Source of the DNA: a virus
Direction: 5' to 3' (one strand)
DNA: 64,000 bases
Virus record (IMG/VR): IMGVR_UViG_3300044825_000698
Coordinates: 35,045 to 99,044 of that record
Part shown: piece by piece, positions 3,424-56,437 of the stretch
Position numbering within the stretch: the first letter of the stretch is position 1
Layout of the letters: each line of letters opens with the position of its first letter
Program-made: the position numbers and the translations under genes
The notes under the pieces: generated by a model
The model's input: the letters and a program-made list of their open reading frames with translations, nothing else
Told to the model about the DNA's origin: nothing
Databases searched by the model: none

Positions 3424-3800
3424 TAGAACAGATCCTTTGCTATCTGCTTGTTAACCATACGCTCAAGGCCGTCAAGGTCTGTTATTGCCGATCTAACCAC
3501 AGGAAGAGGTGGCTCTATGCCCGTTCCGTACTCTTTATTAAAATCTCCCTGGATAGCCAATTCCATGTTGTCAGCATCATAAGTAACTGTCAGTGACTGG
3601 GCGGCGCTACCCCATCCTTTACGACGGGCCAGTTTACGAAGTTTACGTTCATAACGAGGAATGGCCTTATCAATAGCCCTATTCACGTGCTTATCGATGT
3701 TGTTGATGTAGTCCTCGTAAAAGGCAACAATCGTGGGAGTTCCGCTGATAAGCGAACCAGAACCGGATTCGGGGCTAGGTGATGACAAAGCCATAGACAT
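3423..3800 (-). CDS. Hypothetical neck-region protein
   Basis: ORF coupled to the downstream gene; EYGTG motif. Confidence 0.5.
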   Translation of the reverse strand: MSMALSSPSPESGSGSLISGTPTIVAFYEDYINNIDKHVNRAIDKAIPRYERKLRKLARRKGWGSAAQSLTVTYDADNMELAIQGDFNKEYGTGIEPPLPVVRSAITDLDGLERMVNKQIAKDLF

Positions 3801-8856: not shown

Positions 8857-10548
8857 TTATTCTTCGTCAGGTACACGGCGCTGGGCGAACCTGGCTCCGT
8901 ATGCCCGTTGGACAATCTTGTTCATTGTGTCTAACTCAGGACCACCTACGGCAGTACCTGGCAGAGTTCCGCCTTCTTGGCCTTGCCCTGCGTTTGTTAC
9001 ATTAGCACCACCAGCAGACACTACGCTGGAAGTGCCGTCGGCTTGGGGCAATAAGCCCGTCGCCATCATAACAGCCTGTGAAATCTGTGCACGAAGCATG
9101 TCGAGCGCACCCTGATCGATGGCGTCGTCACGCAGTTCTTCAAAGATCTCGCCCATCTTCTCGTTCGGGAACTCTTCACCCAAGATTCGGAGAGCGCCAC
9201 GCTTGGATTCCAGACCGAGTCCCATCTTGGCCTGGACTTCGTTGAGTTTGATAAGTACATCAACGGGTAGCGGTTCAGGCCAGTGAACAGTCGTCTGATA
9301 GGTAAGAGGATCAGCCGGGTCCAACTGAGTGAGTTGGTCTGGCTCGGGGACTTCGGCAACAGACGGGTTATAGATGAGCATCTCGGGCTGGAATACCGCC
9401 GCCGTCTTGATAACGATCTCGTTGATCTTCTCAAGGCCCTTAGTGAAATGAATCCGCTTCATGTGATAGCGATTCATCATCGGCTGGTACTGGATAGCCA
9501 AGGCTACGCCCGAAGTATTGGATACTGGCTGGAACTGGCCTAGGGCGGTCTCAGGAACGCCAGTTATCTCGTGCATGGCCCGCTTCAGGAACGTGATGTA
9601 TTCCAGAGCGCCCGCCATGTTGCCACGGGACTCCAGATTGAACACCTGGGAGTCCTTGGGAAGACCGGCCCATACCTTCTTAGGGCCTCGCTCCAACTGG
9701 CTTGCCTTAGCGCCGGTAATGATCGTTACAGGGGCGGCGTGATAGTTGATGATGTCCGATACTTCGGTCATCTTCTCGTTCAACTCACGATTCAGGGGAA
9801 TGATGTCCCAAATGTCCGATTGTCCCCAGGGCGAGGAAGAAATCGTCATGTTAGGAATGTGGACAACCGGAATCTGACCAATGGGGTTGGGGTATTGGTC
9901 GATCAGTTCGTCGTTGATGTACTGCTCGATACTGTCGTCTGTAAGGATCTCAGTAAAGGTGTAAACCTGTCGTGTTCCTTCGGGTGAAGTCCCCCAGAAG
10001 CGATACTTCAACTTGAAGCGGAGCAGACGATCACGGTCGTGTGGGTGGTACTCGGGGAAACAGTGTGCCGGGTTGAGCGGGATGATGCGAATACGCCCCT
10101 CGTGTGGAACCCCCAGCGGATCTACATAAGGATCTTCAAAAGCAATCTTAACGAAGCAGTCTCCGGTTACACCGGCTAACTGACCCATCTCCCATAGAAC
10201 GTGGTGCTTGTTATTGTGCTGTTCCCAAACCTTATGTAGAAGGTGGGGAATGATCGCACCGTTCTGCTCGGGTACTTTCCACTGGACACCCTTACCGAAG
10301 CAGAAGTTAGTGATGTAGTCCGACATCGTACGGGTGTAGTTCATGGTCACATTGCTCTCGCCCATTTCACGGCGATAAGACCAGTGGTGTCCCAAATACC
10401 AGGCCCAGCAGGCGCTGTAGCGGTTTAGACGGGGGCCATGTACTTCAAACTCTTCGTCAGCCAGTTCAACTAAGCCAAGCGGCGAAATAGCGACGGTTAG
10501 GTCGCTGGAAGAAGCACGGTAACTTGGCGACCAGAAATCAATGGGCAT
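8857..10548 (-). CDS. Portal protein (SPP1 gp6-like)
   Basis: 563 aa; IPVVHIPN, GQSDI, SGVALAIQYQP. Confidence 0.9.
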   Translation of the reverse strand: MPIDFWSPSYRASSSDLTVAISPLGLVELADEEFEVHGPRLNRYSACWAWYLGHHWSYRREMGESNVTMNYTRTMSDYITNFCFGKGVQWKVPEQNGAIIPHLLHKVWEQHNNKHHVLWEMGQLAGVTGDCFVKIAFEDPYVDPLGVPHEGRIRIIPLNPAHCFPEYHPHDRDRLLRFKLKYRFWGTSPEGTRQVYTFTEILTDDSIEQYINDELIDQYPNPIGQIPVVHIPNMTISSSPWGQSDIWDIIPLNRELNEKMTEVSDIINYHAAPVTIITGAKASQLERGPKKVWAGLPKDSQVFNLESRGNMAGALEYITFLKRAMHEITGVPETALGQFQPVSNTSGVALAIQYQPMMNRYHMKRIHFTKGLEKINEIVIKTAAVFQPEMLIYNPSVAEVPEPDQLTQLDPADPLTYQTTVHWPEPLPVDVLIKLNEVQAKMGLGLESKRGALRILGEEFPNEKMGEIFEELRDDAIDQGALDMLRAQISQAVMMATGLLPQADGTSSVVSAGGANVTNAGQGQEGGTLPGTAVGGPELDTMNKIVQRAYGARFAQRRVPDEE

Positions 10549-10887: not shown

Positions 10888-12039
10888 TCAAGCGGCGGTG
10901 TACTCGTTGCCCCGCCATATGGCACGGCCATTACGAATGTGTACGATCTCCTTAGACCAGGAGCCGTCGGCGGCTACCGTAACAATGCCGACCCCTTGTT
11001 GCCAGTTCTCCCAGCGCTTCACAGGACGCCCTGTAATCGTCGTCCCGCCCTTGGTAGAGGGAATACTGCCATCGACCCTGGATAGGCACCCAGGAGACCA
11101 AGCATTGACCACTACAGGCTCACCATCGACCTCAAAGGTTTCGTAGTGGTCTTGTATACGGTGTATATGACCCTGAACCATCGACTGGCGCTCGTTCTTA
11201 GCCACGGCAGATACGGTCAACCGTTCTCCGTGTACGGCATACAGCGGAGTCTGGTGGTCTCCACCGGTGGCCAGTCTCACTCGACCTGCCGGATAGCCAT
11301 CATGGTATGTCACGCCGAGGTCTTCTAACCGCAATAAGGATTGAAGCGACAAGACGGGCCACTCCTCTGGAGCGTTGGCCCGTCGAAGCCGTAGAGCGGC
11401 CATAGCGTTCTTGGTGATGGCGATGGGCAGACGGTTATCGTGGTTGCCTTCCATCATGTGGATTTCACAACCCGTTGGAGACTCCGCCTTCTGTTCGGCC
11501 AAATACTGATGCGTACGGTCGATAGTCGGCTGGGTAGTCATTACGAACTCGGGGCTGACCAAGAACTTGGACGACCACTCCGGGAAGTCACAGGTATCAC
11601 CGAGGTTGACAATGACTGACGGCTTACACTCACGGATTAGTTGGAGCGATACGTTGATGGCGACTTCGTCGTGGAAGGGGTCCAGCGTTCCGTCTTCGTA
11701 ACGTCGATATCCGATCTGCGGGTCCGGGGCAATGAAGATGACCTTCTCAGTGCGCTTGGGGTCAGGCTTGATTGTTGACTTGACAATCGTGGGTTTGCAC
11801 GGTTGTACAACAGGCCATTCAGGCCCCGATTCCCAACTAGGCGAGAAGGCAATGGCAGTAAGATCATGGATCTCTGCTTCGCCCTCGTCGTTCTTAGTTA
11901 GCGTCTGATAGAGGGAGACCTTCTGGATGTTGCCTACATCGTTTACATCGATGTTATGGCGATCCAGTAGATCGGCAAGTTTGCCCAACTTCTGACGTGT
12001 GTTATCTGGGTTGGCCAGGTCCTTGGCAAGATCACTCAC
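10888..12039 (-). CDS. Calcineurin-like metallophosphoesterase
   Basis: PDPQ, NLGDTCD, EGNHD, VHG and GHIH motifs. Confidence 0.85.
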   Translation of the reverse strand: MSDLAKDLANPDNTRQKLGKLADLLDRHNIDVNDVGNIQKVSLYQTLTKNDEGEAEIHDLTAIAFSPSWESGPEWPVVQPCKPTIVKSTIKPDPKRTEKVIFIAPDPQIGYRRYEDGTLDPFHDEVAINVSLQLIRECKPSVIVNLGDTCDFPEWSSKFLVSPEFVMTTQPTIDRTHQYLAEQKAESPTGCEIHMMEGNHDNRLPIAITKNAMAALRLRRANAPEEWPVLSLQSLLRLEDLGVTYHDGYPAGRVRLATGGDHQTPLYAVHGERLTVSAVAKNERQSMVQGHIHRIQDHYETFEVDGEPVVVNAWSPGCLSRVDGSIPSTKGGTTITGRPVKRWENWQQGVGIVTVAADGSWSKEIVHIRNGRAIWRGNEYTAA

Positions 12040-13357: not shown

Positions 13358-13519
13358 ATGAGTATTAATATGAGTGACGAAGACTTTGCGGCAGTATACG
13401 AGGCCGTGCAATTCTTTAATGAAATGGGAGAAGATTCAGATATAAACTATTCTCTGGATCTACTGGAAATTGCCCAAGAGATTCTTGATAAGTACGTCAG
13501 TCAAATAAATCCCAGTTGA
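13358..13519 (+). CDS. Small acidic protein, leaderless, opposite to its neighbours
   Basis: TGGTATAGT extended -10 seven nt upstream of ATG 13358. Confidence 0.5.
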   Translation: MSINMSDEDFAAVYEAVQFFNEMGEDSDINYSLDLLEIAQEILDKYVSQINPS

Positions 13520-14363
13520 GATGGCTTAACCGTCCCATGTCTACTGGTTTTCCAGTACTGGTCATGTATGGTTCACCTTTACGTGGGATTCCCACTTTCC
13601 TTTGGCCACCCTTTGCCGTAGGCCGACTCATTTCAATATCTTTACCAGCCAACCAAAGGGCGGCTTGAGCCTGATTTCCTACGTGCAGACCTCGGACACC
13701 ACGCCCTGCCAAAGTTGAGTACACATCGGCCATCCGTTCAAAACGGCTTGAGCCTTGTTTGTATGGGTGTGAAGATCCTTTAACTAGGTCGGCACTTGTT
13801 ATCCCACGAGGGTAACTTCGTGATGGTCGCATTTCGTTAGCGATCATGTCGTAGGCCCGAAAGTCCACGGTAACCTCAGGACCCTCAGGATCTAAGATAT
13901 TACGGAAGAATGAGTTTGTCTTAGGGTTTGTACGGCGGTTAAGAACTTCTTCTGGGTCTGCTCCACGATGCATTTGTAATGCTCGTCCAATGTTCCTGTC
14001 TGTCGAAACACTAAGACCCGGATAGTGCTCCTTTAGTAGATTCTTTACTTCACTACTACGACTATTGCGTAAAGAACTTCTTTGAATCATCTGCTCGTGT
14101 TCTGGTGTTAAACGCAATAAATCATGAAAAGCAGACTTATTCTGTTCCCACTCTGTTCCAGCAGATAAGGCAGATATTACCCCAGCGGCACTACGTGTGG
14201 ATGTTCCAAACTCTCTACCGGCCTGACGGGTTATGTCATGAGCCTGCGGATACCAGTTCTTACCCGCTTCTATATGATGTTCAGGGATTGTTTCAGCAAA
14301 GTTAGACATACGTCTTACGATTGCCGCCATTTGACGTTGGTTAAAGATATCAAAACCAGCCAT
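13497..14363 (-). CDS. Phage protein, DUF7178 / HhH-like fold
   Basis: GKNWY, AAGVISALS..TEW..N, KTNSFFRNI, VTVD, QAQAALW pattern. Confidence 0.55.
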   Translation of the reverse strand: MAGFDIFNQRQMAAIVRRMSNFAETIPEHHIEAGKNWYPQAHDITRQAGREFGTSTRSAAGVISALSAGTEWEQNKSAFHDLLRLTPEHEQMIQRSSLRNSRSSEVKNLLKEHYPGLSVSTDRNIGRALQMHRGADPEEVLNRRTNPKTNSFFRNILDPEGPEVTVDFRAYDMIANEMRPSRSYPRGITSADLVKGSSHPYKQGSSRFERMADVYSTLAGRGVRGLHVGNQAQAALWLAGKDIEMSRPTAKGGQRKVGIPRKGEPYMTSTGKPVDMGRLSHLNWDLFD

Positions 14364-15018: not shown

Positions 15019-16572
15019 TCAGAAGAACGGGTTCTCTGATACTGAGATTACCGGCATTGTATCCTGAACCGACATCGCACATGCGATGGCTAGACTGTCT
15101 GGGTAGTCGTCGAAAGCGCCCCGCTCCTCTGGTGCGGCGGCTAGAAGGTATGGTCCTCTGTACACCTTCTCCAGGTCGGACATTTGCTGGTTAAAACGCT
15201 TCCACGGACGGGTACGGCGAGCCTTGGAGTGACCAGGAACAATCAACTGGTCACGCTGGATGAGTTCCGTCAGATGTACCCAGCGTTCATTCTGGGCCTT
15301 AGCGTCAGACGACACTGGTAGAACCTCTACCTGGGGCAGGAGGATCTGTAGACGTTCGGCTACAGCGCCTCCAACACCTTGCGAATCCACACCAATACGT
15401 AGTACATCATAATTGCGGATAAAATCAATGATCTCAAAGTACTGTTGCTCCCACTCTTGGTTATTGATTTCCAGCCAGTTAAGAACTCGGTGTTCGTAAA
15501 AACCGAAGCCGTCAGGGTGGTCCCAGTCGACCCACACGACAGTGGCCACGGTTGAGTCATTAGACCGGGCTACGTCGATACCAATGACAACTGGGGTCCG
15601 CCACCACTGTTTGATAAGGGCCATAGATGGGTCGTACATCCGCTCCAGGCGTTCCTCGGTAACGAACATTCCCTTCTCTAAGATCCACTTATTACAATAA
15701 GACATCATGAACTCGTCTGAGTCCTCGCCAATACGTACCTTCTCTTTGGCGATGAACTTGGCGTAGTTCTCATTGTACTTGGCGGCTGTGCGCCAGTCGT
15801 ATTCAAAATGAGCCTGACGGTGGCCCCTCTTGTGGTTTACGTCCCGGCGCTTGTTGTACTGGATCATCTTGTAGAAATAGGATTTATTCCTAGTTGCCGT
15901 ACCAGTAAGGGCAATCGATCCGTTGTTGAACGCCAACATGGGCTTGATCGACTTGGTGATCATGAACTCGTCAGCCTCTTGGGCCTCGTCTACTAGAACG
16001 AAGTGATAGGTCTTGGACTCGATCTTGGCCTTGGGGTTACAAGTCTGCATACGACACAGAGAACCGGAGTGTTTTAGGGTGATTATTCGACCCTTACCAC
16101 GGGCACCACCAGAGGTGGCCTTGTCATCGATTTCAGGGTCCAGCAAGAAGTCCATGGCATGGTCGCTGGTCAACTTGGTGACGATACGGCTAAATACCGT
16201 GTCGGCTTGGTCTTCGACAGGGGCGAATACACCGCACCAGAAGCCCTTCTCAAACTTGCCCAACCAGGTTGGATACACCTTGGCCAACTTAGGAAGGATG
16301 ACCATCATGGAGGCCATGACATTAGACAGAACTTCGGACTTACCCGACTGTCGGGTCGCCACGAGAGTTACCTCTTCACCATCGCCTAGAACAATCGACT
16401 CGATCAACCGATAGGCGATGGGCAACTGGTACGGGAACAGGGTTACGTCACAGAACTCTTCCGTAAACAGTATGAGTTTCTTAACAAGAGCATCAACAAA
16501 CTCTGCTGATGTTTCGTCCAGTTCCTCAACCTGGTCTTCTGGAAGAAGTTCTTCGTCTAGAAGATCATCCAT
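15019..16572 (-). CDS. terL: Terminase large subunit
   Basis: Walker A RQSGKSE, Walker B VLVDEAQ, nuclease GIDVA and FDDYPDSLA. Confidence 0.95.
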   Translation of the reverse strand: MDDLLDEELLPEDQVEELDETSAEFVDALVKKLILFTEEFCDVTLFPYQLPIAYRLIESIVLGDGEEVTLVATRQSGKSEVLSNVMASMMVILPKLAKVYPTWLGKFEKGFWCGVFAPVEDQADTVFSRIVTKLTSDHAMDFLLDPEIDDKATSGGARGKGRIITLKHSGSLCRMQTCNPKAKIESKTYHFVLVDEAQEADEFMITKSIKPMLAFNNGSIALTGTATRNKSYFYKMIQYNKRRDVNHKRGHRQAHFEYDWRTAAKYNENYAKFIAKEKVRIGEDSDEFMMSYCNKWILEKGMFVTEERLERMYDPSMALIKQWWRTPVVIGIDVARSNDSTVATVVWVDWDHPDGFGFYEHRVLNWLEINNQEWEQQYFEIIDFIRNYDVLRIGVDSQGVGGAVAERLQILLPQVEVLPVSSDAKAQNERWVHLTELIQRDQLIVPGHSKARRTRPWKRFNQQMSDLEKVYRGPYLLAAAPEERGAFDDYPDSLAIACAMSVQDTMPVISVSENPFF

Positions 16573-30165: not shown

Positions 30166-30908
30166 GCTGGCATCACCGAAATAGATTCTTCAACCACAAT
30201 TACGCCCGAAGCCAGGCAGGTCCAATCACCACTGTTATCCTGGACAAACATGTCATACCGGTGCTCTCCAGCAGGGACTGTATTCAAATTAGAAATGTGT
30301 AGTGTAATTGAACTATCTTGGTTTTCGGTAATGTACCCACGACGATTACCAGTGAGAGCACCAATAGTTGCGTCAGATGGAGCAGGTGGTGCGTACCACC
30401 GGATATCAAGAACAGTTGTCCCACCTGTGTTCTTGGCCTGCATGTAGGCGTTTTGAACGTCAATAACGTCGCCGTTCTCGTCTTTCCAAGTGAAAGTACG
30501 ATAGAAGTCCTCGTATTGCTTGAAGCGCAGTTCCATATAGTCGGATTCCTCTAGTGGGGTGTACGTATCCAACGCCGACACAACTAGTGTGCCCTTTGCT
30601 ACAGGTTTTGTTACATTTACTGTTCCAGTATACAACGACCGTGTAGGTATAACGGCGACGACATCAAACTCAAGATCACCCTCGGGCAAATCGTAAGTGT
30701 CTTCCTCAGACAGGTAAATAACGATGCCACCTTCTGAGGTGATCTTTGTGGCGAACTCTTTACGAGTGACCTCGCCGGTCTTGACTACACCCCAAGCATC
30801 AATAGGCTTCTGAACACGCCGTGAGACTTTGTCTTTGACAATAATCAACCGTTCCCACGGCAAACCTTTAGTAGCGTGGTACTTTAATGTCGATACTGAG
30901 TGTGTCAT
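30162..30908 (-). CDS. Virion protein with duplicated beta-sandwich (BppU-N-like)
   Basis: Two similar halves (LPEGDLEFDV / VPAGEHRYDM); probable leaderless start at 30908. Confidence 0.5.
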   Translation of the reverse strand: MTHSVSTLKYHATKGLPWERLIIVKDKVSRRVQKPIDAWGVVKTGEVTRKEFATKITSEGGIVIYLSEEDTYDLPEGDLEFDVVAVIPTRSLYTGTVNVTKPVAKGTLVVSALDTYTPLEESDYMELRFKQYEDFYRTFTWKDENGDVIDVQNAYMQAKNTGGTTVLDIRWYAPPAPSDATIGALTGNRRGYITENQDSSITLHISNLNTVPAGEHRYDMFVQDNSGDWTCLASGVIVVEESISVMPA

Positions 30909-30934
30909 GCTCTCTATTCTATCGCAAATATAAT

Positions 30935-30966
30935 ATGGGTGGACCACCCGCAGGCAGTCCACCCAT
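30935..30966 (-). terminator. Hairpin after lysis genes
   Basis: ATGGGTGGAC...GTCCACCCAT inverted repeat. Confidence 0.45.
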
Positions 30967-30984
30967 CAAGAGCACTCGGGTGTA

Positions 30985-31239
30985 TTATACACCAGTTTTA
31001 GTACTACGTGCCTTTCGGGCTGGTTTCTCCAGGTTGGTGACCCGCTCGTCGATGCGGTCAACCTTCCCATCAAGACGATCAACCTTACCGTCCACTCGAT
31101 CCATCTTCCCTTCGACCCGCCTTAGTATGGCCATATTCTGACCATGTTGCTCGGTGTTACGACGGTCAAATCGAAATAGGAGCCACATAAGGGGGCCACT
31201 GATAAGGGCCACAATGACGGGGATGTACACGGGGTCCAT
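30985..31239 (-). CDS. Membrane protein next to endolysin (holin-like)
   Basis: N-terminal TM helix plus heptad repeat (RVDGKVD). Confidence 0.55.
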   Translation of the reverse strand: MDPVYIPVIVALISGPLMWLLFRFDRRNTEQHGQNMAILRRVEGKMDRVDGKVDRLDGKVDRIDERVTNLEKPARKARSTKTGV

Positions 31240-32051
31240 TAGAACATCTTGTCCCAGGTGATGGGGCCGACTACACCGTCAGCCTTAAGACCATTGGCGG
31301 TCTGCCAAGCCTTAACTGCCTCATCAGTCTTGGGACCGAAGTCCCCGTCGTCCTTCAACCCGACAATAACCTGTACTAGGCGAACTGCGTCACCCTTAGA
31401 ACCTAACTTAAGGGGGGTTCCTGGGTACTTGAATTCAAGCACGCCAGAAGGTGTCGAGGCCGAAGCCGGGGGAGCGCCAGCGGGAGCGACGTAGGGCTTA
31501 CCATCGGGCTTGGAATCACCAAGGCAATACTGCCAGTGCCACGCCTCAAACTCCTTCGACTGACGGTTATCAGTCTGAAGGTAGAAGCCCCACTTAGGAG
31601 CGTTCACGCACATCCAGTCGAAGCAGGCCCCACCCATGGAAGTAAGTTTTCCGTTTACCTCGTAACCGAGGTCAATAGCCAGTCCCCAACCATGATTGGA
31701 ACCCTTGGTGCCGGTAGGGTCTGGGGCGGCTGACGGGGCCTTACCAGGCTTCAGATACCAGGTTTTACCTTCATATTGCCGGGTTACCTGGGGCTTACGG
31801 CCCTGATCGGTAGTTGTGTAGCGATCCATGAACATCTGCAACTGACCTTCAAAAGACCGGTAGTCACCGACGTTACGCAGTTTGAAACCTGCGGCCAAGG
31901 CGGCGTCATAGAGTTTGTTAAACTCTTCGGCCACTGGCAAATACATCCGTCCACCAGTCTTGACCTTGCCAAGAACAGATTCAGGCAATTGGCCATTCTT
32001 GTACTGCCTAAGGGCAGTGGGGACGACCAGTTTCATGTACGGAAGGCTCAT
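31239..32051 (-). CDS. Endolysin: M15 (VanY-like) peptidase plus peptidoglycan-binding domain
   Basis: YRS..Q, SNHGWGLAID, EAWHW; DGDFGPKT..AVKAWQ..GL.ADGVVGP.TW. Confidence 0.9.
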   Translation of the reverse strand: MSLPYMKLVVPTALRQYKNGQLPESVLGKVKTGGRMYLPVAEEFNKLYDAALAAGFKLRNVGDYRSFEGQLQMFMDRYTTTDQGRKPQVTRQYEGKTWYLKPGKAPSAAPDPTGTKGSNHGWGLAIDLGYEVNGKLTSMGGACFDWMCVNAPKWGFYLQTDNRQSKEFEAWHWQYCLGDSKPDGKPYVAPAGAPPASASTPSGVLEFKYPGTPLKLGSKGDAVRLVQVIVGLKDDGDFGPKTDEAVKAWQTANGLKADGVVGPITWDKMF

Positions 32052-34391: not shown

Positions 34392-34565
34392 TCAACTATC
34401 TTCGTCCGAATCTTCTGGCAAGGCTGTTCCAAGGAAATGTAAACCTAAAGCACCTATGAATGTCCATGTAGCCAACTTAAGAGTCTGACCAGTCAGTGTG
34501 TACAGGACTAGCAGGGTTCCGCATACGGTCCATATTTGAGCATGTACTTCTTTAATAAACTTCAT
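34392..34565 (-). CDS. Small membrane protein (57 aa)
   Basis: Manually translated; coupled to upstream stop; two TM segments. Confidence 0.45.
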   Translation of the reverse strand: MKFIKEVHAQIWTVCGTLLVLYTLTGQTLKLATWTFIGALGLHFLGTALPEDSDEDS

Positions 34566-35950
34566 CATTTGACCTTTCGGGGAGATGGAGATGGCAACAA
34601 AAAGGTTGCCGCTGTTACGACGATAAGAACTCGACGTGTCTTGACTGGCACTTTGGAATCAAGTGGTATATACGAGTCAAATTGACCACCAAATATGTTT
34701 ACAGCCTCTTCAAATGCCTTCTTAACTTCAGGAGGTGCTGATGACAAAGCAACCGCTAGTTGTTCCGCTTCCTCGTCGGTCAAATCCGCAGAAGCGATGT
34801 CCTCTATCAATGAGGCAATTTCATCCTCACTGAGATCCTGTAGATCTTCTGGGCTTACGCTTGTCAGGTACTCGACAAGTTCGCTCGCAGTTGGGACCTC
34901 AGGAAGGGTGGGTGGAGTCGAATCGTTCGCAGTAGGGGCAGTCGAATCCGCAGTCGGTGCATCTACAGGTTCCGAGGTCACAGCATCTGTGGAGGCAGTA
35001 TCCCCATTGTTCGCAGATGTGTCGGAGGGAGACTCGGTTGAGTCCTCGGGAGCAGAAGGGGCACTGGGAGTCGGAGCATCTGAAGGTTCCGGGGTCTCCA
35101 CTTCGGGAGTCGAGGGCGTCGAGGAGGGCGTCGATACTTCCGTAGACGGCGGTTCCGTCTCCTCCACTGGAACTGTCTCCTCCACCGGAGGTTGAGTTTC
35201 CGCTGGTGGTTCCGGTGTCGGAGGAATCATGACAGGCGCAGTCACTGGAGGAACAGTGGTAGTAGGCATCGTCGTCGGGGGTGTGGATTCCGTAGTTGGC
35301 GGCCATGTTTCCTCCGGTTGAGTAGTGGTGGTGGTCTCTTCAACTATTGTAGTCGTAGTCGTGGTTGTACTAGTTGTTGTAGTGGTAGTAGTTGTCGTAG
35401 TAGTGACAGGTGTAGTTTGGGTGTACCACGATTCGGGGATAAAACCCCAGCCCGGAGCGGTGTAGTACAGGAGGTAAGACGTTGCCCCACCACCGTTTTC
35501 ATAAACATACGCCTCTAATTGTTTCGGCTCGCCATTAGAGAAATCAACATCGGCGGTCTGGCCACACCCACCACCACGGTCGTACCAGTCATTAATAACT
35601 AGTACTCCATCTAGGTACAACCGGAACCCATCGTCAGAATTAGCGCAGACGTAATAAGTCTGGGCTGTGGGGGCAGATAACCACCCGGTGTACTTGACGA
35701 TTACCCCATCGCTACGACCACTATCTAGAACTTCCCCGCCACCCCAGTCGTGTGCGATCTGTGTAAGGGTGCCCGATGAAAGCACTGGTGATTCAGACGT
35801 AGGCATGTCTGGGGATTCTCCCCATGATGCGTAAGTTTGATAAACCAAGCCAGAGGAGTTACTCTCCGCTTCAACTCCGGGTGCGAACCAAGCAATACCT
35901 AATGTAACAATGAACATTAGGCGAGCCAGCACCAGTATGTTACGGCGCAT
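34565..35950 (-). CDS. Secreted PA14-domain protein with Thr/Pro-rich stalk and C-terminal TM
   Basis: Signal peptide; NSDDGFRLYLDG..VINDW, YENGGGA; poly-Thr. Confidence 0.8.
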   Translation of the reverse strand: MRRNILVLARLMFIVTLGIAWFAPGVEAESNSSGLVYQTYASWGESPDMPTSESPVLSSGTLTQIAHDWGGGEVLDSGRSDGVIVKYTGWLSAPTAQTYYVCANSDDGFRLYLDGVLVINDWYDRGGGCGQTADVDFSNGEPKQLEAYVYENGGGATSYLLYYTAPGWGFIPESWYTQTTPVTTTTTTTTTTTSTTTTTTTIVEETTTTTQPEETWPPTTESTPPTTMPTTTVPPVTAPVMIPPTPEPPAETQPPVEETVPVEETEPPSTEVSTPSSTPSTPEVETPEPSDAPTPSAPSAPEDSTESPSDTSANNGDTASTDAVTSEPVDAPTADSTAPTANDSTPPTLPEVPTASELVEYLTSVSPEDLQDLSEDEIASLIEDIASADLTDEEAEQLAVALSSAPPEVKKAFEEAVNIFGGQFDSYIPLDSKVPVKTRRVLIVVTAATFLLPSPSPRKVK

Positions 35951-35964
35951 GTACGCTCCTCTGT

Positions 35965-37404
35965 TTATTCAGGTCGCAGTGCTGAAGCGGTGAAGATTAA
36001 AACTCCAATTAGAACAAACAAGATTGAAAGTACTGCTAGTGTTTCTGAACTACTCCCAGTGTTGGGCAACGTAACTGCCGACGTGGTAGGGGTTGCCGAT
36101 GTAGTTGGGGATTCAGGGACAGTAGTTGTGGTTACTGTGCTCCACACAGCCACTAGATCAACATCGCTGGCGACGAAATAACGCCATACGCCATCTGAAG
36201 GATCTACTAGTAGAGGTAGGTCGAGGGGCGCTGTTGCTGACGATGTGGCCCATCCACCAAACACAAACCCGTCCTTCTTGCACTCCTCAGCGCCTGGTAG
36301 GTAGGTGTACCCAATGAAGGATGCTGAAACTGTGGCTGACTTTGGCTCGCCCCCGATGAGGCATGTACCATCACCAATATTGGTGAGTGCTTTGTAAAGA
36401 GGTACAACCGGTGTTGGAACAGTTGCCGAGGTCGTAGTGGGGGCGGCAGTTGTTGGAGCCGATGTCGTTGGAGGAGCGGTCGTTACGACTGGCGCATTTG
36501 GGTTGTTAGGTGCTACAGCACCGAACGTAGTTCCGTTTTTGGTTGTTCCACCAGGAGCGCTGTCTACTAGAAGAACCGGTGACAAAGCAGTATCACCCAA
36601 GTTGAAGACCGAGAAACCGAGGGTGTACGTGCCGGTTACAGATACCTCGTATGTCGAAATCTGCCAGCCGGTGGAACCGTAGGTGCCAGTGGAGTAATCA
36701 CCAGTACCTGGGTTGGTGAACCCTAGAAGAGCGTAGTTACCAACACCATTATTGACTTTGATGGTCGGGGCTGGGTCTGATCCGGTGTATACAAGGGATG
36801 TGATCGAACCATCATTGAACGGCACATAATCAGTACCGATGTAGTTCCACGCCATCGTGTAGACGGTATTTGCGCTCAAAGTCACCGAACGGGTGATCCA
36901 GGCGGCGTTAGTTGGATTACCACTACCGTTGCCTGAGGCGGTTGCCTGTTGAGACAGCAGAGTCTTGATGGACGCACTTTGGGTGGTGGTAAGCCCCAAA
37001 GAAGTCATGGACGAATCAAAGGACACTCCACCAGCGGGCTGGAGAAGCCCAGCCTTACTGCCATATGGCGAGAAAGTCCAGGTAGTAGGCTGTACGGCGG
37101 GCGCGTAGTATGGATTCGGCTGGCCACTGACGGTTGGATTTCCAACCGCATTGTGAGCCGGGGCATTGAACGTAACGGCCCCACCGATGATGTTTACACC
37201 AGTTCCACTACCTGTAATCGTGGTCCCGTTTAGAGTTCCCGTCTGAGAACCAATGTTCCAGCCTGAGAAAGAGCCATCCTCAAAGTCAATGTTGGTTCCA
37301 CTAACGGAATCAGCATGGGAGTCTCCTGCTAGGGCAAATGACATTCCCAATGTTATGGAGGACAGTATGAGTACATTACGGAGTCTTAAAAGTGGTTTAT
37401 GCAT
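35965..37404 (-). CDS. Secreted surface protein with LPXTG-type sorting signal
   Basis: Signal peptide; C-terminal LPNTG followed by a hydrophobic segment; KDGFVFGGW repeat-like segment. Confidence 0.75.
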   Translation of the reverse strand: MHKPLLRLRNVLILSSITLGMSFALAGDSHADSVSGTNIDFEDGSFSGWNIGSQTGTLNGTTITGSGTGVNIIGGAVTFNAPAHNAVGNPTVSGQPNPYYAPAVQPTTWTFSPYGSKAGLLQPAGGVSFDSSMTSLGLTTTQSASIKTLLSQQATASGNGSGNPTNAAWITRSVTLSANTVYTMAWNYIGTDYVPFNDGSITSLVYTGSDPAPTIKVNNGVGNYALLGFTNPGTGDYSTGTYGSTGWQISTYEVSVTGTYTLGFSVFNLGDTALSPVLLVDSAPGGTTKNGTTFGAVAPNNPNAPVVTTAPPTTSAPTTAAPTTTSATVPTPVVPLYKALTNIGDGTCLIGGEPKSATVSASFIGYTYLPGAEECKKDGFVFGGWATSSATAPLDLPLLVDPSDGVWRYFVASDVDLVAVWSTVTTTTVPESPTTSATPTTSAVTLPNTGSSSETLAVLSILFVLIGVLIFTASALRPE

Positions 37405-37612: not shown

Positions 37613-37759
37613 TCAGCGACGATGTTGCTTTGCCTTCTCAACTTCCATTAAAAATGGACTAACAGCAAATAAAACAGCCAATACTGCACCAACAGTGTAC
37701 GAAACGGCGGCAACGCCCAGAGCAGTGGCCGAGGTTTTCAAGAACGATTGAACATTCAC
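37613..37759 (-). CDS. Small membrane protein (48 aa)
   Basis: Manually translated; GTGA overlap with upstream gene. Confidence 0.35.
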   Translation of the reverse strand: MNVQSFLKTSATALGVAAVSYTVGAVLAVLFAVSPFLMEVEKAKQHRR

Positions 37760-38040
37760 CGGAACTTGCCCAACTTAGGGGGTCTCTTGTATGTGGAAAG
37801 GACAGGAGTCTCTAATGCGGCCTCAAACACGGTATCGCAGTCATCACAGCGCACCTTCTTACTGGTGATCTGGGACTTACCGCTGGTATTGCGGCTCGGT
37901 AGATCAACTGTCGAACGGTTGCCACAAGTAGGACACTTGTCGTTCAATGGCTTGGCCGCAGGAAGTGGGGCCGGTTGTGCCTGTGGCGTAGGAGCCATCA
38001 AGGGTCGCCCACTCTTGTCATAAAGGAACTGGTCTGCCAT
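37756..38040 (-). CDS. Zn-ribbon protein
   Basis: CPTC...CDDC; ATG overlaps upstream stop. Confidence 0.6.
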   Translation of the reverse strand: MADQFLYDKSGRPLMAPTPQAQPAPLPAAKPLNDKCPTCGNRSTVDLPSRNTSGKSQITSKKVRCDDCDTVFEAALETPVLSTYKRPPKLGKFR

Positions 38041-38702
38041 TACTGTCCTAACTCTGGTTGATACCAACCCTCAGGATTATTATTCTCAAACTGTGGACCC
38101 ATATGGGCCTTTTTGGCCTGACTGTGTCCCTTGACGATTTTACGAATCGTTTCCCGCCCGGCTTTTACTTCAGCGTCAGATACAGGGTCCAGGTCTTGGA
38201 ACACGGCGGGGACTAATTCATGGTGGTATGTATTAGCACCTCCCGATCCAATACTGTTCGTTGTACCGGCATTTGGATTTCTCTGGTTTACTAAGACCGT
38301 CCCAGACTCTATGCCTTTCTTGGCCAGTTTGGAACTATGTTCAGATAAATCACCTGAGTACGTCAGACCAGTCCCGATCTTGGTGGCTTCATTGATCGCC
38401 ATACCCAGCAACGTCGGTGTATATGAACGCATCGAATGATCAGCAAAAGCGCTCTCAATAACAGATGGGTGAGTTTGGAACATCTTTAGTTGATCGCCTG
38501 GTTTTGCATGGATATTATGAGCAAGTGATTCGGAATCGGTATCTCCGAATCTCCCATACTCGTAACGGCCCCGGCGAAGTCCTATCTCTGCTGATGGGTG
38601 CAATTTGTAGTGGTATTCGTCCGAGCGTGTATCGTCTGACCTGACAAAGAACCCCGTATTAAAAGCACTTGGGTTATTAGGAGTCTTGAAGTATTTAGCC
38701 AT
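38040..38702 (-). CDS. Hypothetical protein, possibly degenerate GNAT fold; paralog of next gene
   Basis: AFADHSMRS..PTLLGMAIN.A...GLTY...L..HSS.LAK.G shared with 38702-39355. Confidence 0.6.
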   Translation of the reverse strand: MAKYFKTPNNPSAFNTGFFVRSDDTRSDEYHYKLHPSAEIGLRRGRYEYGRFGDTDSESLAHNIHAKPGDQLKMFQTHPSVIESAFADHSMRSYTPTLLGMAINEATKIGTGLTYSGDLSEHSSKLAKKGIESGTVLVNQRNPNAGTTNSIGSGGANTYHHELVPAVFQDLDPVSDAEVKAGRETIRKIVKGHSQAKKAHMGPQFENNNPEGWYQPELGQ

Positions 38703-39355
38703 TACTTACCCAATTCAGGTTGATGCCACTCAGTATCAAGATCAGGGTGCTTGAACTGTGGTCCCATGTGCTTCGCAGGTCGCCCAGACCGGACAAGGTC
38801 ACGGATCGTCTCTTTGCTCCGAGATATGGTGTTTGGATCGGCTGGGTTAGCACTACTTAGCGTTCTTTTATCAATAAGGTATTCGTGTGTGTCTAGGTCT
38901 TCTGCGTCCCATTCGTCACCGTAAGCGAGAGGGTTGTTTGGGTTACGTGTAAGGATTCCCTTAGCCATGCCTCTTTTAGCAAGCCTTGAACTATGCGCCG
39001 TCAAGGAATCGTCGTAGGTCAATCCAAACCCAGCATCCTTGGCATCATTGATCGCCATTCCAAGGAGCGTAGGAACACGGGAACGTAGGGAATGGTCGCT
39101 GAACGCATAACTGATCTTGGCGGGGCGCATATTGAACAGACGCATCTGATCAGTGCCCTCGTCGTAGTAATCACCTGACATCCTGTCATTTACGTCATAG
39201 TGGTCACTATTGTATTCGTAGTAACCCTTATCCATGTCTACTTCGGCGGCTGGATGCATACCACTACGTTCTGAAGAACTAACAGCCAAGTATCTCGACG
39301 ATAACGGATAAACATCCCTGTGGATGTTTGTTGTTGAGTTCTTCTTAATGGCCAT
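38702..39355 (-). CDS. Hypothetical protein, paralog of 38040-38702
   Basis: Same core; C-terminal HMGPQF...W.QPELG. Confidence 0.6.
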   Translation of the reverse strand: MAIKKNSTTNIHRDVYPLSSRYLAVSSSERSGMHPAAEVDMDKGYYEYNSDHYDVNDRMSGDYYDEGTDQMRLFNMRPAKISYAFSDHSLRSRVPTLLGMAINDAKDAGFGLTYDDSLTAHSSRLAKRGMAKGILTRNPNNPLAYGDEWDAEDLDTHEYLIDKRTLSSANPADPNTISRSKETIRDLVRSGRPAKHMGPQFKHPDLDTEWHQPELGK

Positions 39356-39393
39356 AATGCCAATAATACCAGACCAAGAAAATTAGCCCTCAG

Positions 39394-39711
39394 TCACACT
39401 GCGTCTCGGTTGATGGGGTACTCCATGGCCTCTATTGTTTTCAGCCCCTCGGGGTCGACAACATACTGTTCACCTTCAGGTACTCCCCAGACACTGGAAT
39501 CTTTTGAAGTGGGCTGTACTTTATAGACAGTTCCAAACAACCTGTTTTCGTCCATAGCGCCAAAACGGGCGTATCTACGAGCAGTAGCAATATTGGTTGT
39601 CCCATAAGCACCATGCCCAAGAGAACCTCGCCCTGGTCGAACAACTCCACCTTCTACTTCTCCACCGGTACCGTGGAACAGATCTTTGTTCAGGGCATCT
39701 TTAGCGGCCAT
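39394..39711 (-). CDS. ADP-ribosyltransferase-like protein (H-type, Arr-like)
   Basis: LFHGT...VRPG...AYGTT....ARRYA...GTVYKV. Confidence 0.6.
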   Translation of the reverse strand: MAAKDALNKDLFHGTGGEVEGGVVRPGRGSLGHGAYGTTNIATARRYARFGAMDENRLFGTVYKVQPTSKDSSVWGVPEGEQYVVDPEGLKTIEAMEYPINRDAV

Positions 39712-40114
39712 TTGGACGCTCTTCATTCTCACGATGTGTATGCTCGGGCAAGCCACTACGACGTGGGGCCTCATCGGAATAGGTAATCGGTACAAAAGTT
39801 GTGTCCTCGACCGAAGCCACCCGGTGGAACCCATCTCTGATCATGGGGTTTCGCCCGGAAGTTTCTAAACGTACAGGATTAACTATCCCTTCACGCATGA
39901 CTGACCTATACACACCGCTTTTGATGGCCTCATCCTCTTTACGACTCCACAAGGCTTCCTCAGGAGTACGTGGGCGCATGAACCCTTCTGGGTCCCGAAC
40001 CATTGTCCGGTCAGATACATCTTCGACCGTTAATTCGTTCGGGTGAACAGGAAGGCTCTTGATCCACTTGGCTGGCATGAACAACTGGTCGTTTAAATGG
40101 TGAAATGCGGCCAT
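39701..40114 (-). CDS. ParB/Srx N-terminal-domain-like protein
   Basis: SVMREGIVNPVRL.....IRDGFHR. Confidence 0.6.
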   Translation of the reverse strand: MAAFHHLNDQLFMPAKWIKSLPVHPNELTVEDVSDRTMVRDPEGFMRPRTPEEALWSRKEDEAIKSGVYRSVMREGIVNPVRLETSGRNPMIRDGFHRVASVEDTTFVPITYSDEAPRRSGLPEHTHRENEERPNGR

Positions 40115-40554
40115 CAGTCGTCCCACCAACTGCTTTGCCTAGGTGTCTTCTCAACACCAACAATGTCTTTTGGATTAATCCGGCCCTCATGGAAGACGGC
40201 TCCGGTCTCACGTAGTGAGTTCTTCCAGTCTTTGTCGTCATCACGCAGTTTAGAAGGATCAAATGACCGTTTCTGTACACCGTAATCCTGTGCGTAGACT
40301 GGATCTCCAAATGAGTTACGGTCGACACGAAGGTTGCGAGGATTGGCCCGCACAGTCAAAACGACTGGTTCACCACTGGCGGATTCATCAGCCGCCGCAT
40401 TGGCATAGTACCTGGCTAGGTCATAGTCATGGGTCAAATACGCCCCTGTTTCCTTACCTAACCCCGATTTTTTAATTCTCTCCACCTGAGATGCGTCAGT
40501 GCCGTGGTACAAGCGCATATGAAATTGATTGCCCTTGTTGCCTTTGATCGCCAT
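40114..40554 (-). CDS. ADP-ribosyltransferase-like protein (H-Y type)
   Basis: LYHGT.....IKKSGL...GAYLT.....ARYYA...PVVLTV...G.I.P..I. Confidence 0.65.
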   Translation of the reverse strand: MAIKGNKGNQFHMRLYHGTDASQVERIKKSGLGKETGAYLTHDYDLARYYANAAADESASGEPVVLTVRANPRNLRVDRNSFGDPVYAQDYGVQKRSFDPSKLRDDDKDWKNSLRETGAVFHEGRINPKDIVGVEKTPRQSSWWDD

Positions 40555-40578
40555 AACAACAATATTACCAGGATAGGA

Positions 40579-40983
40579 TCATTGGTAATCTATGGCACTA
40601 CGGATATCACGTGAATCGTAAACATACGCCGGAATTTTACGCATCCCAGCGGCCCTAGCGGCCACCGCCCTGTGATGACCTTCCAACACAATCCCGCCCT
40701 CTTTGTCACCGAGTACTTCAATGCGCTCATTGGGGTCATAACCACGGGATTTAATCGAGTTCATCAGGCTTCTTGCCTTGTCACGGTCGATATCATGGAG
40801 CGCCATGAGTCCACCGATGGGTACGTCAACCTCTTCGGCGTGCGTGGAGTACTTAGCATTGGCGACGGCCTCATTAGCCGCTTCAGGATCGTCCATACGG
40901 ACCTCATCGGCCAATCCCTCGTATCCAGCAAACCGTCGAGAAGACGGTCTGAATTGGCCACCACGGTTTCCTTTAATCGGCAT
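40579..40983 (-). CDS. ParB/Srx N-terminal-domain protein
   Basis: LMNSIKSRGY...IEV......VLEGHHRAVAARAAGMRKIPAYV. Confidence 0.75.
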   Translation of the reverse strand: MPIKGNRGGQFRPSSRRFAGYEGLADEVRMDDPEAANEAVANAKYSTHAEEVDVPIGGLMALHDIDRDKARSLMNSIKSRGYDPNERIEVLGDKEGGIVLEGHHRAVAARAAGMRKIPAYVYDSRDIRSAIDYQ

Positions 40984-41007
40984 ACCTACATCGTATCAGG
41001 ATAGGGA

Positions 41008-41373
41008 TTACCAGTCGCTCCCGTCATGGTCTGGCTCATACGCAGTACGGTTGTAGTACTTGGTTTCAAACTCTTCAGCCAGGTGGGTAGAGGCCGGGTG
41101 AATGGTCCTACCCCAGTCAATGAACGATTTAGGGTACCGATCATAAAGATGTTGCATCATCTTACGGGCGTGACCTTTTCCTTCGTCTGGACTACGAAGG
41201 TAACTAGCCTCGATACGGGACGGCATGTCTTCATCATCTGCGTCGGTATAGTGGTCATACTCCAAAGTAGCCTTTTCTCCATCGAAATTGTTCATACGAA
41301 GAATGTGAGAGCCTTTGCCCACCTTTTCATGGATGAACTCAAACTGACTGCTCATATGTGGACGACGTGCCAT
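41008..41373 (-). CDS. GNAT-like acetyltransferase
   Basis: Acetyl-CoA-binding-like EGKGHARKMMQHL. Confidence 0.55.
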   Translation of the reverse strand: MARRPHMSSQFEFIHEKVGKGSHILRMNNFDGEKATLEYDHYTDADDEDMPSRIEASYLRSPDEGKGHARKMMQHLYDRYPKSFIDWGRTIHPASTHLAEEFETKYYNRTAYEPDHDGSDW

Positions 41374-41443
41374 ACAGAAAGTGTATCAGGATAGGGCTAT
41401 CAGGGAGTTACACAGGTGGCCCGGTATGGGGCAAGAACCGGTC

Positions 41444-41854
41444 TTACGCCCGAAATTTACGTAACTCGCCCAACTTCATATCTTGTCGTTTGACCGTACG
41501 TGATTCGCCCTCTTCAGGGAAATGGGTAATCTCTGTGACGTGGATCATTGCTCCGGGTCGTACAGTCCGTTCGCTCTCATATCGTCCACGAGGATCGTCC
41601 GAACCAATGACCCCCCACCGGTCCTTGACATTTTCCCACTCCTGAGAACCTTCTTCTATGATGTGGCGACGGTGGACCTTGGCCCCAACAATGGTTCCTG
41701 GAGACCCTTCCCAGTCAACCCCAGCAAAATCACGGGCCACGTCGTAATCGGTCGTCCAATGCGGCCCCATACGGTGCTTATCCAAGGTTTCAGGGGTGGC
41801 TTCCTGTAGACCACGGTACAACTGTATGAACTGGGGGCCGTTAGGGCGAGGCAT
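41444..41854 (-). CDS. ADP-ribosyltransferase-like protein (R-S-E type)
   Basis: LYRGL...HWTTD..VARDFA...ESE.TV. Confidence 0.6.
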   Translation of the reverse strand: MPRPNGPQFIQLYRGLQEATPETLDKHRMGPHWTTDYDVARDFAGVDWEGSPGTIVGAKVHRRHIIEEGSQEWENVKDRWGVIGSDDPRGRYESERTVRPGAMIHVTEITHFPEEGESRTVKRQDMKLGELRKFRA

Positions 41855-41930
41855 ATACCCATCGTACCACTCGGAATAGGGCTATTACGCAATGGGGTGG
41901 TGGGTGGGTGGTGCTCTCTACCCCCGACCC

Positions 41931-42115
41931 TGTGGATAACCTGTGGATAACCATGGGGGGTGTGCCATAGGTCACACCACACCGTGTGACAAATGTCACA
42001 TGGCCCTGTGGATAACTCCCTCATTCTGTGGATAACTACCCTGTGGACAGGCTGTGGATAACTCGGGCCGAATGGGGCCGATCCTGTGGATAAGTGCCCT
42101 GCTGGCTGTGGATAC
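41931..42115. promoter_or_regulatory. Array of co-oriented DnaA boxes
   Basis: TGTGGATAA at 41931, 41942, 42007, 42027, 42053, 42085; near-matches at 42042 and 42107. Confidence 0.85.
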
Positions 42116-42576
42116 AGAAGTCCCACGGTAACCGGCGTTTGCCCTGCTCAGGGGCACATTCCGTTATCCCCGGTAACCACTTTCAGCCCGTCCTCTGGGT
42201 AAGAGGGCATAACGGGTCCAGAATGGGGGGTGCGTGGCTCTCCGGGCCTCTGAGGGGGCAATGGTGGCAACCGTGACAAATGTCACATCGACCCTATGGT
42301 TGGGCCTATGTGACAAGTGTCACAGGTGATCGGGGGATGGGGGTAGGCGTGACGCTGGTCACTACCCCTGGGATACTTGCTATCAGCAACTAAATACTTG
42401 CTCACTACAACCTTCTCCCCGTACACGCGCACGCGCATACACGCACGCACGCATACGCACGCCCGTACGCACGCACACGCCCACGCCTGTTTCCTCTCCC
42501 TCCCCAAGACGCATACTTGCTGAGTACAACCTTTGGGCCGATTTGGGCGACCCTGGGTAGTGTGACGGATTTCACA
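41961..42576. promoter_or_regulatory. Cluster of CRP/GlxR-like boxes (TGTGA-N6-TCACA)
   Basis: Perfect at 41985, 42309, 42561; variants at 41961, 42272, 42348. Confidence 0.7.
42420..42480. repeat. Alternating purine-pyrimidine (ACGC)n-like tract
   Basis: Uninterrupted RY alternation 42420-42462, resuming 42464-42480. Confidence 0.85.
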
Positions 42577-42691
42577 CCTTTATGACTCGTTGTTTGCCCG
42601 GCAGTGAGGGCAGACTGGGGGGGTCGGAGCAGACAGCCCCGACACCGGGTGTCTCACCGTGAGACAGCCGGGCAACTCAGAAAGGTCAGCC

Positions 42692-55892: not shown

Positions 55893-56050
55893 GGAGGCTG
55901 TATGTCAGCAACGACATACGAGTGCCCTGCCTGTCACCAGCGCATAACGGTCTACGTACCGCTGGTGGAGAATCCGACCTGTACCCGTCACACGGGTGGG
56001 GGTCGCCAAATGAAACCAGTTACAGACAACAAGGAGAACAACAAGTGAGC

Positions 56051-56437
56051 ATGGACATCAAGACCATTGTCATTCTGACTGTCGAGGGTCGCATCCCGGC
56101 AGAAGAAGGACTCAACCTCATCGCACAAGAGTGCGGTGTTACCACCGACAGCCTCATCCAGGCTCTGACATCGAGCGAGACGGTCACGACCCTCTCGGCC
56201 CGTCGTTGGACGATGGAAGACGACGGAACCGTCATCAAGATGTGGGCCTCGGGAGCATCAGCCGGGACCATCGCACGTGCGTTGGCCCGGACCCGTAACA
56301 GCGTGTCACAGCGTGTCCACTACCTGCGTGGTCAGGGCCACGACTTGGAGAAGCGTGAGACCGCAGGCATGAACCGGATTCGTCAGAACCGCACTAACCG
56401 CAGTGGGGCAACTCAACTGAAGTTGCCTGGGTTCTGA
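56051..56437 (+). CDS. HTH protein (GcrA-like N-terminal HTH)
   Basis: WT.EDD...IKMW.SG.SAGTIARAL.RTRNSV..R. Confidence 0.7.
   Translation: MDIKTIVILTVEGRIPAEEGLNLIAQECGVTTDSLIQALTSSETVTTLSARRWTMEDDGTVIKMWASGASAGTIARALARTRNSVSQRVHYLRGQGHDLEKRETAGMNRIRQNRTNRSGATQLKLPGF

Follow-up and report, generated by a model that had tools for sequence, protein, structure and literature searches.

The 64,000-nucleotide stretch of viral DNA analysed here (the window) comprises bases 35045–99044 of a virus record (IMG/VR, IMGVR_UViG_3300044825_000698) that is complete at 99,044 bp and bears direct terminal repeats. At window positions 37756–41854 it carries a cluster of ten genes, seven of which begin with a peptide of 5–12 residues ending in QF or LF (approximately MAAKDsLnkDQF). 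We refer to this peptide, whose core is hydrophobic-x-x-[Q/L]-F, as the tag. Among the approximately 125 other gene starts of the 99-kb genome, two are tag-like, counted as QF within the first 13 residues of true gene starts over the whole genome (Fisher p = 3e-8). One of these two, MAVRIQFRRGT, is presumably a common fibre N-terminus. The initial annotation of this DNA had proposed that unrelated small enzymes share an N-terminal peptide here; every open reading frame (ORF) and peptide that it listed is present, and the count just given bears out an enrichment over background.

The genes of the cluster all lie on the minus strand, and the first of them from 41854 downward (41444–41854) encodes a 136-residue protein with the tag MPRPNGPQF (41828–41854). 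It is possibly an R-type ADP-ribosyltransferase (ART), with QLYRG and then HWTTDYDVARDFAG; it has no Pfam or PHROG match, and hhalign gives a weak match to an ART alignment, A2 (probability 11%). The 121-residue protein at 41008–41373 (tag MARRPHMSSQF, 41341–41373) is probably a small GNAT: no Pfam family matches it, and its nearest ESM Atlas clusters carry PF00583/Acetyltransf_1 (score 0.95), which is a lead only. Its PHMSSQF is identical to the tail core of P0117, a member of the 220-residue family described below. At 40579–40983 lies a 134-residue ParB-N-like protein (tag MPIKGNRGGQF, 40951–40983), which matches PHROG ParB families with a best expectation value (E) of 1e-5 and contains EGHHR, an instance of the motif GxxHR. 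Pfam ParB_N (PF02195) matches it at E = 0.03, with 14.8 bits against a cut-off of 26.3, and matches its orthologue in a related locus (L004) at 1.7e-5.

An H-Y-type ART of 146 residues is encoded at 40114–40554 (tag MAIKGNKGNQF, 40522–40554). Its LYHGT and GAYLT motifs are invariant among orthologues, and Pfam ART-PolyVal aligns from residue 13 with E = 5e-5 and 24.5 bits, below the cut-off of 31.2. The gene at 39701–40114, whose ATG at 40114 overlaps the upstream stop (TGATG), encodes a 137-residue protein with the tag MAAFHHLNDQLF (40079–40114). A DGFHR motif makes it a putative ParB-N-like protein; it matches no family model and has no detectable similarity to the protein at 40579–40983. 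A small ART of 105 residues follows (39394–39711, ATG at 39711; tag MAAKDALNKDLF, 39676–39711). In hhalign it matches alignment A2 with a probability of 86% and E = 5e-6, and its relatives in L004 match Arr-ms (PF12120) at 27.4 bits against a cut-off of 25.

Two paralogs of a GNAT-like family carry the tag core in their C-terminal tails. Paralog 2 (217 residues, 38702–39355) has KHMGPQF (38753–38770) followed by an end of WHQPELGK, and paralog 1 (220 residues, 38040–38702) has AHMGPQF (38088–38105) followed by WYQPELGQ; internally, they contain QMRLF and QLKMF, respectively. The last gene, for a 94-residue zinc-ribbon protein (37756–38040, ATG at 38040), begins MADQF (38026–38040) and is a further tag carrier, absent from the list in the initial annotation. 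Judged by sequence, the cluster encodes small stand-alone enzymes of kinds that phages turn on their hosts: two or three ARTs, one or two ParB-N proteins, a small GNAT, the two GNAT-like paralogs and a zinc ribbon. The earlier assignments of these proteins to ART, GNAT and ParB folds are mostly reasonable in light of the ART-PolyVal, hhalign and PHROG matches above, with the GNAT at 41008–41373 standing as the Atlas lead.

The N-terminal tags lie outside the Pfam domain matches, in exposed terminal stretches. In the small Arr-like ARTs the closing LF doubles as the first strand of the ART domain (LFHGT), and Pfam Arr-ms aligns from residue 11; that part of the small-ART match is therefore not independent. 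The start codons of the cluster genes were assigned by inference, and one public gene call begins 41008–41373 at Met7, still leaving MSSQF. Tag-like ends also occur in two probable virion proteins, a neck-region ORF (3423–3800, minus strand) that ends NKQIAKDLF and a 581-residue protein encoded after the tape measure (genome positions 30216–31961; L008:6217–7962, minus strand) that starts MPQYRNRQF. PHROGs give no function for either.

The expression signals of the cluster are distinctive. Virion genes of this phage have strong AGGAG-type ribosome-binding sites, whereas the genes starting at 41854, 41373, 40983, 40554 and 39355 have no Shine-Dalgarno sequence and instead a TAnnnT box 6–7 nucleotides (nt) before the ATG (TACGAT-6nt-ATG at 41854, TACACT-6nt-ATG at 41373 and TATTAT-7nt-ATG at 39355). 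Ahead of the box stands an exact CCTATCCTG at three genes (40554, 40983 and 41373) and a variant of it at 41854 and 39355. Together these elements form a repeated promoter unit, on the minus strand at 39356–39385, 40555–40580, 40984–41007, 41374–41400 and 41855–41885. The remaining cluster genes overlap the stop codon of the gene upstream (TGATG, TAATG), and the related loci L001–L004 keep the same layout of TAnnnT boxes without a Shine-Dalgarno sequence or stop overlap. The lack of a Shine-Dalgarno sequence together with a TAnnnT box so close to the ATG implies leaderless mRNAs from host-type promoters. On these predicted signals, each cluster gene either has its own host-type leaderless promoter or is translationally coupled to a gene that does, and the regulation of the cluster thus differs from that of the head genes. 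The tagged genes do lie on the strand of the structural genes, as had been pointed out, but their expression signals set them apart. The same promoter layout precedes the gene for an LPXTG protein at 37404, and a looser one, with TAnnnT 8 nt before the ATG, precedes a WhiB-like gene at 63348.

Conservation of the tag as a peptide

Searches with the 220-residue paralog found 14 homologues in public assemblies, to which pattern scans added one IMG/VR locus and four metagenome loci; the IMG/VR locus came from alignment scan A1, and scan A6 gave none. In the related loci L001–L004, the tag occurs on at least 12 genes. Small proteins there without detectable similarity to those of the window start MAAKDSLGGQF (three cases) or MAIKGGPGGQW, and MAAKDALNPTLF, MPAKDALNKDLF, MAAKDYLNEDLF, MAAKDYLNWEEL and MAAKDSLNKDQM are further tagged starts on non-homologous proteins. 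Zinc-ribbon orthologues in related loci begin MTEPQF or MPDEQF. The gene content of the tagged locus varies between related phages.

A given protein may also exchange its leader. Orthologues of the ART at 40114–40554 start with MAIKGNKGNQF, MTAQDNVSKKQF, MPAKDNVSKDQF, MSASESLRNDQF or MAAKDSLHDDQF, with QF invariant throughout and the ART strand HMxLYHGT directly after it. In addition, MAAKDSLGGQF bridges two leader variants listed in the initial annotation. The swaps among ART orthologues and this bridging form therefore indicate a single leader family of approximately 12 residues. The tag is portable between unrelated proteins and is no artefact of paralogy.

Synonymous variation shows at which level the tag is maintained. 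Leu7 of the 12-mer is invariant and uses five codons, QF is encoded by all four CAR-TTY codon pairs, and Asp5 and Asn8 use two codons each; codons 2–3 (GCC GCT) alone look almost fixed at the DNA level. Because Leu7, Asp5, Asn8 and QF are kept through synonymous changes, selection acts at the level of the peptide, and it is as a peptide that the tag is maintained. A scan with the leader DNA (beginning ATGGCCGCTAARGAY) retrieved 34 loci, all of them unrelated in-frame occurrences and none holding the 220-residue family. The initial description of a portable tag on unrelated small enzymes is thus upheld: the tag is real, conserved and under peptide-level selection.

The GNAT-like family and its two-part tails

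Neither paralog in the window matches any Pfam or PHROG family. A profile built on them nonetheless retrieves 410 clusters at E <= 0.001 from 1.84 billion representative proteins, with clusters defined at 50% identity and 410 a lower bound. Among cultured phages, tblastn with the 220-residue protein, two distant family members, the zinc ribbon and the small ART found no match. The family signatures are an N-terminal MAxYF[KR], the motif LSxHSSxL[AV]xx[GA], a GNAT-like fold and a two-part tail.

The fold call comes from a structural model of paralog 1 with a predicted local distance difference test (pLDDT) score of 78 overall. All of the top 50 matches in a VIA search with the model are GNAT folds (Z 5.0–6.7, residues 1–150). 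The ESM Atlas structural neighbour is likewise a GNAT, in weak agreement (template-modelling score 0.43–0.49), and Foldseek found no match in the PDB. On these middling matches, the window paralogs are predicted to be GNAT-like in fold. The tail is modelled at a pLDDT of approximately 50–65 and is not docked on the domain.

The first part of the tail is [K/P]-K-H-[L/M]-[S/G]-P-Q-F, which has the same core as the N-terminal tags. In the form found in the window paralogs and their relatives, H[ML]G.QF, the Q and the F are invariant in 16 paralogues. The initial annotation correctly saw tag copies near these C-termini, although the motif of the window paralogs lies approximately 16 residues before the end and not at the very end. 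Across the wider family, whose mean identity is 29%, Q204 and F205 are conserved like fold-core residues, and QF is found in the tail of 135 of 160 members with a median distance of 14 residues to the end.

The second part is the extreme C-terminal end, 0–30 residues after the core. QLSLF, EQLRLF, EQLKLF, QLGLF or QLTLF terminates 32 of the 160 tails; EQLRLDI, EQLNLGI or EQMNLGL terminates 15; and 69 end in [LI]-P-G-hydrophobic, for example EQLKLPGIE. Thus 116 of 160 tails carry an end of clamp-binding type (QxxLF, QLxLxh or [LI]PGh), against 1.3 expected from shuffled tails; 47 are canonical clamp-motif forms and 69 are [LI]PGh variants, where approximately one is expected. Within the phage group itself the ends differ, being QMKLPGFD in L002–L004 and WxQPELGx in the window and L001.

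Two other peptides of the genome resemble these ends. The internal Q-[LM]-x-[LM]-F of the paralogs (QLKMF, QMRLF; residues 71–75) is invariant in 16 close homologues and fits the clamp pentapeptide; LF alone is kept across the wider family, and the motif may therefore be structural. An early-region protein on the plus strand (55922–56437) ends ATQLKLPGF immediately before its stop (56414–56434), an end peptide like that of the L002–L004 paralogs. This protein is not homologous to the 220-residue family and has a weak PHROG match to a D5-like regulator region; its QLKLPGF end resembles the clamp-binding-type peptides of Hda and ImuB.

Genomic setting and the DUF7178 protein

Gene order in this tailed phage is sheath-like. 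Among cultured phages it is closest to the Streptomyces phages of the BRock/LuckySocke group, with a terminase identity of 47%. The window includes the terminase (15019–16572), an SPP1-type portal (8857–10548), a 256-residue ORF without assigned function in the scaffold position (8033–8803) and the major capsid protein (6919–7998). Minus-strand genes run from 41854 downward through lysis, fibre, head and tail genes. A control region without genes occupies 41855–42650, and plus-strand genes begin at 42659. The leftward unit starts beside this control region at 41854, and the tagged cluster is therefore its first gene set. We regard the cluster as a fast-changing accessory locus that heads the leftward transcription unit. 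It had no match by megablast among 50,697 phage records, and no match was found in IMG/VR scans with single proteins or in a scan of genome contigs. The G+C content is approximately 0.62 in the plus-strand (rightward early) genes and approximately 0.50 in the leftward genes, and the change is abrupt, falling at the control region near position 42000; the genome's two arms may differ in history.

Directly downstream of the cluster, also on the minus strand, are genes for two large secreted proteins rich in Thr and Pro. One (35965–37404) carries a sortase signal (LPNTG) together with a membrane anchor, and the other (34565–35950) ends SPSPRKVK. L004 has a homologue of one of the two and L001 of the other. 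Judging from the sorting signal, the phage seems to equip the wall of its Gram-positive host with an anchored protein. A protein that starts MASDHRGRELHAGKRT is encoded at the left extremity of the genome (L007:4958–5449), and the tagged cluster of L004 holds a protein with a similar start, MATNHRGQPIHAGKRT (L004:2193–2570). Similar starts in two places suggest that the locus may swap members with another accessory region.

One tag-like tail lies within the head module. The 288-residue DUF7178 protein (13497–14363, minus strand; Pfam PF23802, 2.9e-24) ends HLNWDLFD (13500–13523), and its gene stands between those for terminase and portal, adjoining a metallophosphoesterase (10888–12039). Thirteen homologues keep [HL]-L-[ND]-W in this tail. 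The initial annotation listed the end of this ORF with the tags; the conserved end stands, and the protein itself, a supposed head protein, models as a helical HhH-GPD (DNA-glycosylase-like) fold. In the model (pLDDT 74, tail below 50), the top 22 VIA matches are all HhH-GPD enzymes, the best being 3n0u_A (Z 7.7, 172 aligned residues). Foldseek gave no reliable match in the PDB, and its weak top rows are the same HhH-GPD enzymes. The homologues share an invariant V-D-F-R, which we take to recall the catalytic V-D-T-H of endonuclease III. As modelled, the DUF7178 protein resembles a DNA enzyme whose floppy tail carries the tag, and not a part of the head.

A candidate docking motif and its alternatives

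The tag is found at either protein end and always in an exposed terminal stretch; it is short, portable and outside folded domains. Our favoured reading, to which we assign a probability of approximately 0.4, is that it may be a short linear motif by which proteins dock to a conserved partner in the infected cell, near the sliding clamp. The peptide would plug all of the tagged proteins into one common partner. Less certainly, that partner would be a conserved component of the infected cell rather than the capsid, and the best candidate may be the DNA sliding clamp of the host, or something that sits with it. The clamp is a candidate because, in the 220-residue family, the tag core sits a few residues upstream of an end of clamp-binding type. 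A cellular hub is favoured because near invariance within a very diverse family suits a conserved host partner over a fast-evolving capsid interior, and because the DUF7178 carrier has a predicted DNA-glycosylase fold and the promoters are of host type. Docking of this sort would concentrate enzymes that use NAD+, acyl-CoA and NTP at one site, possibly on DNA.

Published clamp-binding peptides follow the consensus QL[S/D]LF or QxxLF, with QLSLPL in Hda (PMC12309361, PMC9690074), and mycobacterial and actinobacterial examples are QLPLWG in ImuB and Q[Y/L]ALF in DnaQ (PMC10421592, PMC11348249). The ends of the family tails match these published forms. Like the tag, beta-clamp motifs, including the tails of T4 gp43, gp33 and gp55, are peptides at floppy ends that join unrelated proteins to one hub, and most ends in the 220-residue family match the consensus with the tag core just upstream. 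The N-terminal tag (..[SG]xQF, ..LNxDLF), unlike them, misses the consensus at positions 1 and 4, and a search of the genome for a phage-encoded sliding clamp found none.

Several points weigh against docking near the clamp. The N-terminal tags have no Gln at position 1 and have Gln in place of Leu or Met before the Phe. The terminal motif is degenerate (QPELGQ) in the window's own paralogs, and relatives of the DUF7178 protein conserve only L-[ND]-W and not LF. The fold matches are middling (Z 5–7.7). None of the phage's own replication genes is tagged. Finally, the cluster's own promoters are compatible with late read-through from the control region, and hence possibly with packaging. Being non-canonical as a clamp motif, the N-terminal tag may bind a neighbouring site or another hub. 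It is tempting to speculate further that the tag loads the enzyme kit and the DNA-glycosylase-like enzyme onto the host clamp, directly or through the 220-residue proteins as adaptors, so that DNA or the replisome is modified at the fork, but we consider this specific form improbable. In a stronger version still, the tag would also package the kit, which would arrive with the DNA.

The initial annotation proposed instead that the tag is a capsid-targeting signal that docks enzymes in the procapsid, without cleavage, for injection with the DNA. The anatomy of the locus parallels that of the T4 internal-protein locus, where unrelated small proteins with anti-host functions carry a common N-terminal leader of approximately 10 residues (PMC3012670). 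In T4 as here, the leader (of IPI, IPII and IPIII) is the sole shared feature of these proteins and gene content varies between related phages; T4 also packages an ART, Alt, and its internal proteins are likewise made early. Late read-through is possible, since the late genes follow the cluster on its own strand, and two ORFs of the virion region have the tag-like ends NKQIAKDLF and MPQYRNRQF. Further, ART and ParB-N are hub domains of polyvalent proteins that are predicted to be packaged and injected (PMC5512222). Polyvalent proteins share with the cluster an ART of ART-PolyVal type, ParB-N, zinc ribbons and a presumed role in early invasion, but their domains are fused in a giant polypeptide, whereas here they are separate tagged proteins of 90–220 residues.

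The T4 leader, however, ends at a site for the gp21 prohead protease and acts through the scaffolding core. The prohead and Prp protease families PF04586, PF03420, PF00574 and PF04327 are absent from the complete genome, and the relative LuckySocke is annotated with portal, scaffold and capsid and no protease. With no S78-, S77- or ClpP-type protease and this annotation, cleavage by a prohead protease is unlikely, as the initial annotation had also concluded. Here, moreover, the motif also occurs near C-termini, and its carriers have host-type promoters of their own. Further points against loading into the head are that tagged and virion genes use different expression signals, that a motif read in the capsid interior would be expected to drift and this one is near-invariant in a very diverse family, that it adjoins clamp-type peptides, and that its carrier in the head module has the predicted fold of a DNA enzyme. 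With these signals, this fold and the clamp-type tails, nothing that we found links the tag to the head, and we judge capsid loading to be unlikely. A second precedent for uncleaved docking is given by encapsulin cargo-loading peptides, which are approximately 10 residues long, portable, found at either terminus and docked with their enzymes on an HK97-fold shell. The tag resembles them as a portable terminal peptide of similar length; the sequences are unrelated and encapsulins are not phage heads.

Somewhat less probable still is that the tag is read within its own locus, by the 220-residue GNAT-like protein, which would bind the N-terminal peptides of neighbouring proteins or modify them. 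The tail copy would then be a built-in pseudo-ligand, with the terminal clamp-type peptide bringing the complex to the clamp, and the protein would act as an adaptor or a tag-modifying enzyme. This would fit with the family and tagged genes being neighbours in all five loci seen, with a tail core conserved like fold-core residues, and with a predicted fold that is that of peptide- and amine-acylating enzymes. Against it, tail type and leader type do not co-vary among the loci, and the tail is poorly modelled and not docked on the domain.

It is improbable that the tag is a signal for processing or turnover, whether it is cut by a protease of host or phage or acts as a degron that shortens the life of toxic early enzymes. 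The leader does end sharply at a bulky hydrophobic residue, with variable sequence after it. HLNDQLF and ALNKDLF resemble streptococcal L27 leaders such as ..TLNNLQLF' (PMC9405229), and phages put an L27-type leader on unrelated proteins (PMC5744158). In phage 80alpha, for instance, which uses the Prp/L27 leader (..NLQLF|A), the capsid and scaffold proteins, which are non-homologous, have N-terminal leaders ending LQ[FL]F. That system, however, needs the Firmicutes cysteine protease Prp. This phage has no Prp, S78, S77 or ClpP-type protease, and the absence of Prp (PF04327) weakens cleavage of that type in particular. Its nearest cultured relatives infect Streptomyces, and Actinobacteria, to our knowledge, lack both the long L27 and Prp. 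In the small ARTs, a cut after LF would also take part of the first strand of the domain.

That the peptide has no function, the shared start being a promoter-plus-first-codons cassette boundary for shuffling or a set of codons suited to leaderless initiation, is very unlikely: the near-fixed codons 2–3 and the repeated promoter unit would fit, but a purely DNA-level cause is largely refuted by the synonymous changes, by tags on translationally coupled genes that lack the promoter unit and by the same core in the C-terminal tails of so divergent a family. Pupylation-like GGQ, type IV pilin leaders, double-glycine leaders and ClpX N-motifs were dropped as fitting poorly in sequence or context.

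T4 fills its head with anti-defence proteins by means of a shared address peptide, and bacteria use such peptides to attach many enzymes to the sliding clamp. We know of no description of the tag or of the 220-residue family, and the tag appears to be a new peptide of this kind, marking a changeable set of ART, ParB-N and acetyltransferase-like proteins in an uncultured lineage of actinophages. It also ties the cluster to the GNAT-like family, as yet unnamed, whose 410 or more clusters have clamp-type tail motifs and which merits a name of its own. If the tag is a docking motif, as we favour, then its reader, once found, would give a function to that whole family. It would also show where common and unexplained phage enzymes act in the cell and offer the tag as a means of sending cargo there.

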